In this document: positions 35,676 to 46,503 of the stretch, in pieces
Layout: each line of letters starts with the position of its first letter
How positions within the stretch are numbered: the first letter of the stretch is position 1
Source: Lampris incognitus
Lineage: Eukaryota
Direction: 5' to 3'
Length of the DNA: 64,000 nucleotides
Assembly: GCF_029633865.1 (NCBI RefSeq)
Contig: NC_079220.1
Coordinates: 16,850,216 to 16,914,215 of the forward strand
Position numbers and translations under genes: made by a program
Notes under the pieces: generated by a model
Databases searched by the model: none
Told to the model about the DNA's origin: nothing
Seen by the model: the letters and a program-made list of their open reading frames with translations, nothing else

Positions 35676-35884
35676 TTAAATGTTGTCATTCCCTGGTCTT
35701 TGCTGGACGGGTTTGGAGACAAAGCAAGTGAGGCAAGATTGAGATGGTTTGGATATGTGCAGAGGAGAGATATTGGGTATATTGGAAGAAGGATGCTGAA
35801 TATGGAACTGCCAGGGAAGAGGAAAAGAGGAAGGCCAAAGAGGAGGTTTATGGATGTGGTGAGAGAGGACATGCAGATGGTTGG
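35676..35884 (+). mobile_element. LINE RT C-terminal tail fragment (left part), interrupted by the LTR element; continues at 46399
   Basis: ORF 35700..35912 ...ASEARLRWFGYVQRRDIGYIGRRMLNMELPGKRKRGRPKRRFMDVVREDMQMVG then after the LTR element 46399.. reads VTEEDAEDRKMETDDPLWPPLTG, reconstituting a continuous LINE tail. Confidence 0.65.
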
Positions 35885-36160
35885 TGTTACAACCCTGGCT
35901 CAAGGGATGTAACAAAAGAGAGACAAGACGAGGGTTGCAATAGCAATCAAAATATTTAATAATACGGAAAAAAAAGATGAATAAAGTTCAAAAAACAATG
36001 TGCTGGTCGGAGAGAGGAAGCGGTGGGATCCGGAAGTCTCAGGAAGTGCGCAGATCCCCTGGAAGCCTCCCCAGAGCGCGGGAACAACAAAGTGCAAAAC
36101 ATGCCCACCTGGAACTGAAACAGAGACAAAGCCAGCAGGCAGGAAGAGGAGGCCGTAACC
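35885..36160 (-). repeat. 3' LTR (276 bp) of Gypsy-like element; termini TGTTAC...GTAAC
   Basis: about 85-88% identical to 46123-46394; polypurine tract GGGAGGGGGGG immediately internal (36161-36172 minus strand). Confidence 0.75.
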
Positions 36161-37365
36161 CCCCCCTCCCAAAAAAAAAATCGGGGACCTTAAAGGACCC
36201 GAAACTAACAGGCACAACAACAAAACAAGCAAGACACAAACAAATCAAACCAAATAATTTTTTTTTAAAAAAACCAAAATACTAGCCTGACCTGGGACAA
36301 CCTCCGCCTCCTCCGGTCACCTCCCCTAACGGACCCCCACCCCTCAGCAACCAAGGGCCCTAGGAAGCAAATGTAAGAGAGGCGAGAGAGCCAGAATGAC
36401 GGAGACAGAGGAGGTACGGAGACAGAGACAGAAGGACAGTACAAACACCACACGGAACACAAATACTAGCCGTACCCTAACCCAACTCAGGGAGCAGGGG
36501 CACGGGAAAGAGCATCTGCCACAAAATTGTCTAGCCCCCTAATGTGACGCATGTCCAAGTGGTATGCCTGCAAAAACAGGCACCACTGCATGACCCTCTA
36601 ATTTGGGCACAGCATGGACCTCAGGAACACAAGAGGGTTATGGTTTGTATAAACCACTAACGGAACGACCCCTGACCCCACATAAATCTAAAAGTGGATC
36701 AGCGCCCAGATCAACACAAGCGCCTCCTTCTCGATCACCGAGTAGTTTAGCCTGGTTGGTGCTGAGCTTTTTAGAGAAAAAACTAATGGGTCGATCCACC
36801 CCCGAACCATCTGCCTGCAGCAGCACAGCACCAGCCCCAACGTTGCTGGCGTCTACCTGGAGTGAAAACAGAACATCGAATCTAGGTGCAGCTAGAACTA
36901 GACCCGAGGTCAAAAGTTGTTTAACATTCTCAAATGCCAGCTGACATGATCGATCCCACTCAAATTTGGCCTTAAACTTAAGCAAACTAGTCAGGGGAGC
37001 CACAACCATGGAAAAGTTCCGACAAAACCCACGGTAGTAACCCACCAACCCTACAAAGCATTGAAACTCTTTGTTGGTCGATGGGACAGGGTACAATTCA
37101 ATTCAAAACTTTATTGCAGACTCAGGGTCCAAGACAGACAAAGACAAATAGATAAAAGACAAACCCTGGACAATACACAGAGTAAACACACTAAAATCAC
37201 ATAAATGGAACAAGTCAGTGTGTTATAAGAAGGCAGCTATACCAGTGATCCCACTGCCGGGATTGGTAGCGTGTGGCACTGAATCTTATATTAGTTAAAC
37301 TCTTGATGATTACATTATTAGAGTCACTGAGCCGGTAAATACATTTATACATGAGCTTTCAAATC

Positions 37366-37575
37366 AAATCAAATCAATTTTATTTGTATAGCCCAATATC
37401 ACAAATTACAAATTTGCCTCAGTGGGCTTAACAGCAACACAACATCCTGTCCTTAGACCCTCTCATCGGATAAGGAAAAACTCCCTAAAAAACCCCTTTA
37501 ACAGGGAGAAAAAATAGGAAGAAACCTCAGGGAGAGCAACAGAGGAGGGATCTCTCTCCCAAGACGGACAGCGTG
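37366..37575 (-). repeat. 215 bp repeat family copy 4, abutting the LINE 3' region
   Basis: as 13010 copy; tract here is (caaat)n. Confidence 0.6.
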
Positions 37576-37579
37576 TAAT

Positions 37580-42710: not shown

Positions 42711-45700
42711 GTTAACAGTGAGACGTGCCTCAGTCAGACGATCAAACAGCTCCCCCACCCGGGAGAGATGCTGCTCCCAAGTGTCACTAAAGACAACCAC
42801 ATCATCCAGGTAAACAGCGCAACCCTCCAACAATTCGATTCATCAAGCGCTGAAAGGTGGCTGGGGCGTTCCTCAATCCAAAACTCATTACTGAGTACAA
42901 ATACAGCCCCGACGGCGTGATAAAGACGGCTATCTCTCTAGCACGTGCTGACAGTGGAACCTGCCAGTATCCCTTCAAGAGATCAAATATGCTGACAAAC
43001 GCAGCAGATTCGACCTGATCAACACAATCCTCCATACGAGGAAGGGGATAGGAGTCAGGCTTTGTGACACTGTTGACATTTTGGTAGTCGGTACAAAACC
43101 TAAATGTACCATCAGGTTTATTCACCAAAAGACATGGAGAAGCCCAGCTAGAGGAGGACGGCTGCGCAATACCATTCTCTAACATATATCTAATCTCGCC
43201 ATCCAGATGGCTACAGTTCTCCACTGACACCCGATAGAACCGCTGCCAGATCGGCTCCGCACCCCCCAACGTCGATGTTGTGTTCAATCAAATGCGTACA
43301 GGAGGGGGTGTTGCCAAACAGCAAGAGATACCTGCGGATCAAAGCAACCAACTCTGAATGTCTACTCACAGATAGGTGAGCCAACAATGCCTCCAGGTTC
43401 AAGAGGGACTCAGAGTTCTTTAACTGGTCTAGTAGCACACAATCATCAGGCCCAGCTACACCATCCTCACCCGGCGCTGCCACCACCGGGCCAGGAGGTG
43501 AGTTGGGCACCTCTGCACCACCCACCAGCAACACTGGCTTAACGACACCATCAGCGCGGTCTACCTCACCTGCAGAGAGAACCTGGTCAAACAAGTCTGC
43601 CAATTTAGGGTCAGCTTTCTGTTCTCTCACGAGGTTATCTCGAGTAACTGAACCAGGAAGTTTAGACAGGTGATCACTGGAGGTATCAACCATTGGACAA
43701 GGGACCACCAGAGGACCCACAGCAGCCATGCGACTCATTGAGCGTGTTACAGCACAAGCTGGAAAAACCCCAGGGAAACACTTCTCACTCTCATCAGTGC
43801 AGACAGGGACAGACGAAACAACCAGAGGTGGGGAAACGTCACGCCAAACGCGCCCACCAGCTAGATTATTCCCCAAAATAGGCAGGCAACGAAGGCTGCA
43901 CCCCCATAACAACCTTTCCCTCTACCAGCTCAGAGGTAAATATGAGCCTATGTAAGGGAACCAAGGTGTTAAGTCCTATACCCCAGATCAGGACACTGTC
44001 ACCTGTATCCGTCACCCAAGAAAATGGCAGCACAGATTGCGAAACAAAAGAGTCTGACGCGCCAGTGTAACGCAATATTCCTACTGGCACTTTTTCCTCA
44101 CTGCCAACAATAGACACAAAGCCATTCGTAATGAACGGTGCTTAATCTGAACCAGCCGGGCTTTTCTCGACTGGCTGCAGGTCAGGAGATAACACAGGAA
44201 TAGACCAGTTGTCAGCTGAAACCGCAAGTACAGCAGGTTTCACCGTGGTGCTAGGCGGCGACTTAGAGGCCTTAGCCTTCAGGACAGGACACTCATCCTT
44301 CCAGTGACCCCTACCCTGACAGAAGTTACAGACTCTTTGAAAGTCACCCTTTCCTCGGGAACCATCAGATATAACAGACGGATACTCGTTCCCAGCACCA
44401 TGTGTAGTGTGGCGAGCCCCAAATGAACTCTCCTTCTCATTACGTCCCCAGTCACGAGCACGGGTTTCCCCCAAATGGCCCTTGTGCATTAACACAAATT
44501 CATCGGCCAAAACAGCAGCCTCTGCAGCTGTATCTACTTTGAGCTCATTAAGACAGACTGCGAGACGCTCCGGGACAGAATCTTTAAATTTCATGGACAA
44601 AGTCAACATGAGATTGTTTATCCTTTCGTTTTAAGCCTCTAAACCGCTGGCGATAAGCCTTGGGGATGAGCTCATAGGCCCTCAAAATCGCAGTTTTAAC
44701 TGTCGTGTAATCCTTGCTCTCAGTAGCGCTCAAAGCAGAGTAGGCTTCTTGAGCTCTACCCATTAACACACTTTGTAGAAGCAAGGTCCGAATCAGACCA
44801 ACCTCTAGTCTCAGCGACTCGCTCAAATAATACAAAGAACGTATCTTGGTCATCCTCATTAAACTTAGGCACAAGCCGCAGATTTGCAGTCACATCACTG
44901 CCCCTGGGGGATTCTAGAGTAGGAGAGCCCTCCACTATTTTACCTTCCCTAATCAACACCAAACATTCCCATTGGAATTCTTGTCTTAACTTTTCGAGCA
45001 CATTCTTGGCTTCCTCCGCCTCTCTGTCTTTCTGTCGCTCAGCTCTGTCAAACTCAAGTTGCATCAATAACATTTTCTCCTGCGTCTTCTCTTGCTGCAA
45101 TAACAACTCCCTTTGTTGTTCAAACGTCAAATTACTACTCATAGGCAGAACAGCAGGTGACTTAGCTGACATATGCGGAGGTGGACTAGCCTCACTCTTA
45201 ATGACACTGGTCTCCTTACGCTTGTCAGACAGAAAAGACCTAAGACTGTCTTTGTTTCGGGAACCAGTTATCTTAATCTCCAAGGCCTCCGCAATTTGTA
45301 AAGCTGGTCTCTCGTACATTTACCCAGCAAGTCATCGGACTCGTCCACTAGATTAGCCATAACCTAAATCGTGCGTATCGAGTAGCTATGACAACAATAT
45401 GTCTCACTCCTCCACCTGCTGAAACACACCAAACCAAAACGGAGGCAACCGTGCTAATCGCGCCAAGTGCAGGGACAAAGATATCAAAGGGGAGTTTCCC
45501 CAAGCCCTAGATAACGCACCCTAGTCTTCGTGCGGCTTCGTGGCAGGTATTTACGCACTGTATACCGCTGGCTCGCTCAGAATAACCAGCGCGCTAGCGA
45601 CTCTTAGAACCACGGCCGTGCTCCCGAGACAAGATGCTCTGACCACTAGCACCACACAAAAACAACAAACTAAAATAACAAAACACCCAAACAAACACCC

Positions 45701-46122
45701 AATGTACCCCAACAAAGGGAATACGCCACTTATGCCTACGTGGGGATAATAGAAGGCAACAGCTCCGGGTAGCAACAAACCACTCCAAATCTCTAACCAC
45801 TGCACCAACACTCACCCCTAGGTCTGATGTCCCAACAGGTAGCACAGCAAAGCGTCCCCAGCCTGGGCGAAAGGCTGGAGACGAACCGTGGTCCTCTCTC
45901 CAACGCAGCACAAAAAACGAACAGGCGCAACAACTACACCTGCAAAATACCCAAATGGACTTATCTCCCACCAGCACGCAGCAAATGATATCACTAACAA
46001 TATCATAACCACTGCCAAGCAGTGAAACGAAGAAAACGCGCTCGCAAAAAGCAATAAGCTACTACGGGCAGTAGGCTATTACGATGGCCTGGTTCAAACC
46101 CAGATCCGGACGAGCTCCCACT

Positions 46123-46394
46123 TGTTACAACCCCGGCTCAAGGGACGTAACAAAATAAAAGGGAGACAAGTCAAGCGTTGTGATAACAATCAAAATATTT
46201 AATAATACAAGACAAGAAAAAAAAGAAGAATAAAGTTCAAAAAACAATGTGCTGGTTGGAGATCCGGAAGTTTCAGGAAGCGCGCAGATCCCCCGAAAGC
46301 CTCCCTGGAGCACGGGAACAACAAAGCGCGAAACCCGCCCACCTGAAACTGAAATAGAGACAAAGCCAGCAGGCAGGAAGAGGAGGCCGTAACA
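46123..46394 (-). repeat. 5' LTR (272 bp) of the Gypsy-like element; putative PBS just internal
   Basis: minus strand after LTR reads ...GTAACA AG TGGGAGCTCGTCCGGATCTGGGTTTGAACC (TGG-initiated primer-binding-site-like, complementary to a tRNA 3' end GGTTCAAACCCAGATCCGGACGAGCTCCCA). Confidence 0.7.
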
Positions 46395-46398
46395 TTGG

Positions 46399-46503
46399 GG
46401 TGACAGAGGAAGATGCAGAGGACAGGAAGATGGAAACTGATGATCCGCTGTGGCCACCCCTAACGGGAGCAGCCAAAACTACTAGTAGTAGTAGTAGTAG
46501 TTG
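46399..46503 (+). mobile_element. right part of the split LINE tail, ending in (AGT)7
   Basis: see 35676 feature. Confidence 0.6.

Follow-up and report, generated by a model that had tools for sequence, protein, structure and literature searches.

Very probable nesting of five dead mobile elements by successive insertion in a teleost-type genome

Overall architecture of the locus

A window of 64,000 nucleotides from Lampris incognitus (NC_079220.1, positions 16,850,216 to 16,914,215, forward strand; here called the window) raises the question of how pieces of several mobile elements came to lie inside one another at positions 35676-46503, and in which order they arrived. The whole window is rich in repeats and has a G+C content of about 39-59%. 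Raw repeat finding between 34.0 and 48.5 kb returned one direct-repeat pair (35885-36159 and 46123-46393, ~10.24 kb apart) and one 31-nt inverted-repeat pair (38042-38072 and 39237-39267, 1.16 kb apart). In the list of open reading frames (ORFs), minus-strand fragments of retroelements and of a transposase lie between the repeats, and a short plus-strand tail resembling a long interspersed nuclear element (LINE) appears at both outer edges. An earlier interpretation made from the letters alone (the sequence-only reading) had seen in this arrangement a nest of four levels, with a LINE tail split by a Gypsy-like long terminal repeat (LTR) element, the latter by an L1-like LINE and this in turn by a Tc1 element.

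Our analysis indicates that the locus very probably consists of five dead mobile elements, nested by successive insertions in a teleost-type genome (Table 1). The four levels were borne out: every guest shows a target duplication of its own, the frames of the hosts resume beyond it, and all three junction pairs agree with the earlier positions to within a few bases. The relative chronology drawn from the nesting likewise holds and gains a fifth member, a short retroposon resembling a short interspersed nuclear element (SINE). Of the three family labels, Gypsy-like was right and could be refined to Gmr1-like, Tc1 is valid at the superfamily level only, and L1-like had to be abandoned. The boundaries, the duplications, the restored host sequences and the domain content are direct observations. 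Every guest carries the terminal structures and the target duplication expected of its class, i.e. TG..CA ends, primer-binding site (PBS), polypurine tract (PPT) and TTGG for the LTR element, 8 bp for the LINE, and terminal inverted repeats (TIRs) and TA for the Tc1/mariner element. The domain matches (Pfam, E <= 0.01, with stitched translations for the stop-ridden region) suit the class of each element, and the ORF list has all guests oriented as their hosts. Rebuilding the hosts by deletion of their guests, a check that the sequence-only reading had proposed, gave a gap-free alignment for two hosts and an alignment one residue short for the third.

Such a window is hard to assemble: it is dense in repeats, with a 99% perfect palindrome of 548 nt nearby and a second Tc1/mariner copy at a Kimura two-parameter (K2P) distance of 0.021. 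Some junctions might hence be chimeric joins of repeats. A mis-join, however, would yield neither matching target duplications on the flanks of each guest nor codon-continuous host frames, and an artefact of this kind is very improbable.

Table 1 Features of the nested locus and related copies (positions in the window; levels count inwards from the outermost host)
Feature	Position	Strand	Remarks
Level 0, target duplication of LINE tail, left copy	35683..35700	.	18 bp, TTGTCATTCCCTGGTCTT; directly outside tail
Level 0, left half of 5'-truncated non-LTR tail	35701..35884	+	LDGFGDKASEARLRWFGYVQRR...REDMQMVG; translation, alignment to teleost C-termini
Level 0, right half	46399..46500	+	VTEEDAEDR(1-nt frameshift)RWKLMIRCGHP*, short 3' untranslated region (UTR), (TAG)7; translation and alignment
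Level 0, target duplication of LINE tail, right copy	46501..46518	.	18 bp, TTGTCATTACCTGATCTT; directly outside tail
Level 1, LTR retrotransposon	35885-46394	-	10,510 bp
TTGG target duplication, left copy	35881..35884	.	abuts LTR
TTGG target duplication, right copy	46395..46398	.	abuts LTR
Level 1, 3' LTR	35885..36160	-	direct repeat, TGTTAC...GTAAC(A) ends
Level 1, 5' LTR	46123..46394	-	direct repeat with 3' LTR
Level 1, PPT	36161..36170	-	GGGAGGGGGG (element orientation); abuts 3' LTR
Level 1, PBS	46104..46120	-	TGGGAGCTCGTCCGGAT; 2 nt inside 5' LTR
Level 1, upstream part (gag, protease remnant, integrase-deletion scar, reverse transcriptase (RT) core), ending AKVATIN	42611..45319	-	Pfam, tblastn against L001
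Level 1, gag start MYERPALQ	45319	-	
Level 1, gag CCHC knuckle	44289-44330	-	weak Pfam match
Level 1, protease remnant ILRYTGASDSF	44046-44078	-	
Level 1, integrase-deletion junction (H2C2, rve core and SH3/p58_C removed; ~1.2 kb)	43537..43562	-	tblastn against L001
Level 1, YLDD of RT core	42801-42812	-	
Level 1, downstream pol (RT thumb/connection and RNase H), ending ADALSRAPAP*	36487..37093	-	Pfam, ORF ends of relatives
Level 2, apurinic/apyrimidinic endonuclease (APE)-type LINE	37094..42602	-	5,509 bp, many frameshifts and stops; Pfam, relatives
Level 2, LINE ORF1	42552-41716	-	278 aa
Level 2, LINE ORF2 (endonuclease and RT)	41706-37218	-	Pfam
Level 2, target duplication, 5'-side copy	42603..42610	.	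8 bp, CTGTCCCA; flank match
Level 2, target duplication, 3'-side copy	37082..37089	.	8 bp, CTGTCCCA (minus orientation); flank match
Level 3a, Tc1/mariner element with DD36E/Incomer hallmarks	38045..39264	-	1,220 bp, 28-bp TIRs, 346-codon transposase, single in-frame stop
TA target duplication of Tc1/mariner element, one side	38043..38044	.	flank and second-copy alignment
TA target duplication of Tc1/mariner element, other side	39265..39266	.	flank and second-copy alignment
Level 3b, 5'-truncated SINE-like or LINE-3'-end retroposon	~37361..37583	-	ends AAATAAAATTGATTTGATTTGATTTGA; repeat copies; absent from the sequence-only reading
Further SINE-like copies	13006-13238, 16208-16450, 20667-20784		truncated at different 5' points
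Junction sequences of the nest			ATCAATCTGTCCCAGATTTGTCTC, GAATTGAATTGTACCCTGTCCCA, CTTGATATACACTCACCGG

The outer LINE tail

On the plus strand, a coding sequence can be followed up to 35884 (...RFMDVVREDMQMVG) and again from 46399 onwards (VTEEDAEDR...). Joining these two positions restores REDMQMVG/VTEEDAEDR, a junction that aligns without gap to teleost homologues at 70-73% identity. For the joined tail of 82 residues, 727 homologues were found, nearly all from teleosts. The tail is bracketed by an 18-bp duplication (TTGTCATTcCCTGgTCTT), whose copies agree at 16/18 positions; the chance of such agreement at fixed positions is ~1e-7 to 1e-8. With its own duplication and its restored coding sequence, the pair of pieces is therefore a single 5'-truncated retroposed LINE copy of ~285 bp, and the claim that the LTR element had split a LINE tail precisely is upheld by the gap-free joined halves and by the duplication common to both. 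What remains of the copy (the last 82 codons, a 3' UTR, (TAG)7 and the imperfect flanking duplication) has the traits of a retroposon. Only the translation of its end had to be corrected: the former DRKMETDDPLWPP (KMETDDPLWPP) was frameshifted, and alignment to the homologues gives RWKLMIRCGHP* after a shift of 1 nt.

The search with the outer tail found no Pfam domain, and its homologues are unnamed short ORFs without Pfam domain. Presumably it derives from an RTE-type fish LINE (Rex3/Expander). With that group the tail would share the motif series RLRWFGHVQRR...GRPKRRFMDVVKEDM...EDAEDR.RW..MIRCGDP*, heavy 5' truncation and an end in a short tandem repeat, here (TAG)7.

The LTR element and its missing integrase

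Both outer LTR edges confirm the proposed 10.5-kb minus-strand LTR retrotransposon with its TTGG duplication. The LTRs (TGTTAC...GTAACA, i.e. TG..CA ends) are identical at 235 of 260 aligned positions; 25 differ, three indels separate them, and their K2P distance is 0.105. The repeats, reported as 275 bp each, are indeed LTRs of one element, but the right one measures 272 bp. With ~10% divergence, three indels and an interior with a 1.2-kb deletion, the 272-276-bp repeats could be ascribed to recombination between two separate LTR elements. In a recombinant, however, the duplications on the two flanks differ, whereas TTGG is identical on both sides here, the flanks of the LTRs are the halves of one codon-continuous LINE tail with its own duplication, and PBS and PPT stand in their proper places; the chance of a recombinant origin is next to negligible.

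The PPT and the PBS have counterparts in corresponding places (AAGGGGTGGGG and TGGGGGCTCGTCC, respectively) of L001, a related element on a contig of GCA_977065575.1. We take the PBS of the nested copy to resemble the site at which tRNA-Pro primes murine leukaemia virus (TGGGGGCTCGTCCGGGAT); a single mismatch and one absent base would separate the two. At 46085-46120, the ~20 nt that follow the 17-nt PBS (reverse complement TCTGGGTTTGAACCAGGCCA) presumably resemble a stretch complementary to the T-arm of a tRNA (GGTTCAAA...), and complementarity to the primer tRNA may extend beyond the PBS. A tRNA gene beside the 5' LTR was considered and rejected, since the tRNA-like stretch is the primer-binding site and ARAGORN found no tRNA in the whole window; Rfam gave none at this place either.

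The reverse transcriptase domain RVT_1 (7.6e-28) spans profile positions 1-202/205 entirely upstream of the inner LINE, while RT_RNaseH_2 and RT_RNaseH (E about 1e-25) lie downstream of it; the stop of pol follows at ~320 bp from the PPT and 3' LTR. No integrase was found by Pfam on the element. The joined RT-RNase H region has 2,843 relatives (best 73% identity), the named ones being Pol polyproteins from transposon 297 / 17.6. None of the relatives at 68-73% identity has an integrase after RNase H. Longer relatives carry the end of rve and p58_C/SH3 before the RT, and pol ends at ADALSRAP in all. L001 likewise has the gene order SCAN-type gag, H2C2, rve, p58_C, RVT_1 and RNase H. Within Ty3/Gypsy, an integrase upstream of the RT marks out the Gmr1 group (PMC8220671). 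Because its relatives place the integrase before the RT, the level-1 element was provisionally assigned to this group; the Gypsy-like label is thereby narrowed to Gmr1-like Ty3/Gypsy (relatives ordered gag, protease, integrase, RT, RNase H), by the domain order of the relatives.

The place of the loss can be read from L001. Residues 25-604 of its first ORF and 114-617 of its last ORF align to the nested copy only 25 nt apart, with ~395 residues absent between them, and the flanks of this scar correspond to the integrase-flanking parts of L001. Loss of an integrase from downstream of RNase H was rejected: pol of the relatives ends at ADALSRAP with the integrase upstream, and no room for an integrase is left after RNase H in the level-1 copy. 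Without the inner LINE the copy measures 5.0 kb, and addition of the missing ~1.2 kb fits the family size; fish Gmr families measure 6.0-6.5 kb and have LTRs of 337-518 bp (PMC11117352). The copy thus shares RVT_1, RT_RNaseH_2, RT_RNaseH, the end of pol after RNase H and the rebuilt size with the Gmr1-like clade, but differs in its deleted integrase, its shorter LTRs (272-276 bp) and a protease DTG mutated to YTG. L001 itself (positions 1195-7200 of its contig) has LTRs that are 100% identical and long gag, integrase, RT and RNase H ORFs, interrupted solely between H2C2 and rve. It is apparently a very young, possibly active Gmr1-like element of another genome.

The inner LINE

Homology to pol halts at AKVATIN (42611) and restarts at YPVPSTNKE (37093), with one residue missing in comparison with six relatives. 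The element between these points had been described as a LINE of about 5 kb that splits the RT of the LTR element after its YLDD motif. The junction does lie past YLDD, by 64 codons, but outside the catalytic core, between the RT core and RNase H; the LINE has 5.5 kb with its guests and 4,064 bp without both. Its ORF2 encodes Exo_endo_phos (2.6e-11) followed by RVT_1 (1.6e-25) and, together with the target duplication, this characterizes an APE-type non-LTR element. Once its guests are taken out, its RT and C-terminal region span 99-100% of intact relatives, with an identity of 57-65%. The 3' end (AATAAAGTTTTGAATTGAATTG) stands directly against host sequence. Elsewhere in the window, a 175-bp fragment at 25982-26156 is 83% identical to the endonuclease region of the nested LINE (40999-41170) and represents another copy of the family.

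The designation L1-like found no support in ORF1, tail, ORF2 length, endonuclease or RT comparisons. ORF1 gave neither Transposase_22 nor any other Pfam match at E <= 0.01. The element lacks a poly(A) tail, and an intact ORF2 of its family has ~935 aa. No L1-type C-terminal zinc (CCHC) motif is visible by eye in the C-terminus of the nested copy. Among solved structures, L1 ORF2p matches the RT region only (1e-21 for the nested copy and 1.8e-25 for its intact relative P0416) and is outscored there by R2 (8e-29 and 1.3e-29, respectively); the endonuclease had no match to an L1 endonuclease among solved structures. A single named relative was found, 'jockey-like', and the names of cluster members gave no other clade label. 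Two ORFs, an APE-type endonuclease, an RT and a target-site duplication are common to the inner LINE and the L1 clade, whereas an ORF2 of ~935 instead of ~1,275 aa, an ORF1 without Transposase_22 and the absence of poly(A) set it apart. These comparisons point to an APE-type LINE outside the L1 clade. We presume a resemblance to the CR1/L2/Rex1/Jockey group, elements that end in short tandem repeats.

The two guests of the inner LINE

The RT of the inner LINE is split by a Tc1/mariner element, as the sequence-only reading had it: the break falls inside RVT_1 (profile positions 5-162 upstream of the guest), 17 codons after YADD. Removal of the guest and one TA restores YADDLVILSPCSAGLQLLLDI/CSMYGMEHD (LLLDI/CSMYG), which aligns without gap to five relatives. 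The TIRs of 28 bp match at 26/28 positions. A second, TA-flanked copy (~60788-62014, plus strand) differs by a K2P distance of 0.021, and similarity between the copies (~60790-62012 in the second) stops at the TAs of the nested one. The BLAST match ran 15 bp past the TIR, but alignment showed these flanks to be alike by chance, which leaves the TA boundaries in force.

The transposase contains HTH_Tnp_Tc3_2 (1.7e-17) and DDE_3 (8.3e-13). In FQQDNAPCH...LNPIEHLW the E follows 37 positions after the D, which leaves 36 residues that separate the second D from the E. The former assignment (Tc1, 1.23 kb) is thus correct for the superfamily, but the hallmarks are those of DD36E/Incomer and not of DD34E/Tc1 proper, and the length is 1,220 bp. 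The DD36E/Incomer family comprises elements of ~1.2 kb with TIRs of 22-32 bp in ray-finned-fish hosts (PMC6875036). The nested copy agrees with it in length, its 346 codons, its 28-bp TIRs, the TA, the DD36E spacing, the helix-turn-helix (HTH) and DDE_3 domains and the host range, and differs by one premature stop. The match to DD36E/Incomer is one of features.

A second guest, a SINE-like repeat of 222 bp, interrupts the C-terminal part of LINE ORF2, which resumes as FQALLRN/LMYKCIYRL as in the relatives. The window holds four copies of it with a common 3' end and differing 5' ends, a pattern usual for retroposed fragments of SINEs or LINE 3' ends. No tRNA-like head was seen in these copies, so the repeat may represent a LINE 3' end instead of a SINE. 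The Rfam search at gathering scores found nothing across the whole window and one chance-level match in 35.6-46.6 kb, and no curated RNA family, LINE 3'-end elements included, could be used for typing the tails. The tails of the inner LINE (37094-37120, AATAAAGTTTTGAATTGAATTG) and of the SINE-like repeat (37361-37385, AAATAAAATTGATTTGATTTGATTTGA) are alike, a hint that a LINE and a SINE may be paired here through a common 3' recognition tail.

Order and age of the insertions

As read from the nesting, the outer LINE tail would have come first, followed by the Gmr1-like element, the inner LINE and finally the Incomer and SINE-like copies, whose mutual order the nesting leaves free. The age proxies agree with this order: the LTR pair has a K2P distance of 0.105, equivalent to roughly 5-50 million years at 1e-8 to 1e-9 substitutions per site per year, the Incomer copy one of 0.021 to its sibling, and the LTR element and the inner LINE carry ~10 disabling changes each against one stop in the Incomer copy.

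For the mechanism of each step, and for all steps having taken place at this locus, we infer from the biology of the element classes. A LINE, probably RTE-like, would have inserted by target-primed reverse transcription and left its last ~285 bp with an 18-bp duplication. A Gmr1-like Ty3/Gypsy element would then have integrated into this tail on the opposite strand, duplicating the four base pairs TTGG. It may have been integrase-less beforehand and moved by the proteins of another copy, or it may have lost the integrase afterwards. Thereafter, an APE-type LINE from outside the L1 clade would have entered pol downstream of the RT core and ahead of RNase H with an 8-bp duplication. Into this LINE, a Tc1/mariner transposon of DD36E/Incomer type would have moved by cut-and-paste, at a TA within the RT, and a 5'-truncated SINE-like retroposon would have landed near the 3' end of ORF2. 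It is a tentative idea, which we regard as possible though doubtful, that the level-1 element represents an integrase-less Gmr1-like lineage spread by the proteins of autonomous relatives, rather than a copy that suffered the loss after landing, and, separately, that the SINE-like copy shares its AATAAA-(TTGAN)n tail with the host LINE as mobilising partner.

Several points weigh against successive insertion as set out here. The duplication of the inner LINE has only 8 bp, and an exact 8-mer match of such kind occurs in ~1% of shuffles. There, too, one codon of the host pol is missing and the frame is offset by 1 nt. The missing codon and the offset suggest that the LINE duplication was once longer and that a small deletion has probably shortened its 5' copy; a duplication of 12-17 bp with an internal deletion in its 5' copy is plausible and would explain the missing codon. 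The target duplication of the SINE-like element is weak (GAAAC/GAAAG), and the K2P distances to its siblings (~0.10-0.11) are not clearly below that between the LTRs and give an upper bound on its age only. The LINE might also have entered the LTR element in a progenitor copy, away from this locus.

A related objection is that a composite moved as a unit, either the LTR element with the LINE inside or the LINE with the Tc1/mariner element, in which case the order of nesting would differ from the order of arrival at this locus. Any movement of the LTR element without integrase required the proteins of another copy, the guests share the orientation of their hosts so that read-through transcripts are conceivable, and LINE and LTR element have decayed to a similar degree. 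On the other hand, the AATAAA at the 3' end of the LINE is sense to the LTR element and would tend to end its genomic RNA early. When its RT is broken, a LINE depends on mobilisation in trans, an uncommon event in this class, whose members prefer to copy their own RNA. The Tc1/mariner copy is far younger than the LTR pair by divergence and by its one stop, and even composite movement leaves each guest younger than its host sequence. Transport as a composite is accordingly unlikely, and we retain successive insertion at the locus.

All five elements are dead through frameshifts, stops and one deletion, and the only role left to them is to record in which order the events took place. Nested insertions are well known in repeat-rich eukaryotic genomes and are used routinely for relative dating, e.g. 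in the intergenic retrotransposon nests of maize and in interruption or defragmentation analyses of vertebrate repeats; the present finding is ordinary in this respect. These clusters have in common with the locus the insertion of element into element, separate target duplications, hosts rebuilt by guest deletion and the LTR divergence clock. There is no difference in kind; the locus is a five-element example that mixes LINE, LTR, DNA-transposon and SINE-like classes. It shows, with codon precision, the order in which five repeat families of one fish-type genome were active, and has little import beyond annotation. The LTR clock reading could calibrate the remaining elements, and the mixture of four element classes makes the locus a useful test case for repeat-defragmentation software. 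A naive annotation would overlook that the integrase is deleted and that the Gypsy-type element has its domains in Copia-like order.

Other repeats in the window

Two further LTR retrotransposon remnants lie on the minus strand. The first (22216-23788) has RT_RNaseH, Integrase_H2C2 and rve in the ordinary order of RT, RNase H and integrase; the second (26959-29207), in a G+C-rich block at 26-30 kb, has RVT_1, H2C2 and rve, again in the ordinary order. An ORF at 4865-5332 (minus strand) matches DUF4371 just under the Pfam cut-off (31.9 versus 32.1 bits). We take this domain to be common in transposase-derived proteins of hAT type (ZMYM/ZBED-like), and the ORF is probably another DNA-transposon remnant. 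On the plus strand, an ORF of 378 aa (54805-55941) encodes several C-terminal C2H2 zinc fingers; in a window otherwise filled with repeats, it may belong to a host zinc-finger gene as one of its exons.

Close to the left edge of the nest, 34028-34575 and 34703-35250 form an inverted repeat of 548 nt, 99% complementary and with a 127-nt spacer. On each arm of this palindrome lies the N-terminal HTH part of a Tc1 transposase of Sleeping-Beauty type (Pfam HTH_SB, HTH_38). The palindrome consists of the 5' half of a Tc1 element in head-to-head arrangement, the origin of which could be aberrant transposition, a foldback or a mis-assembly.

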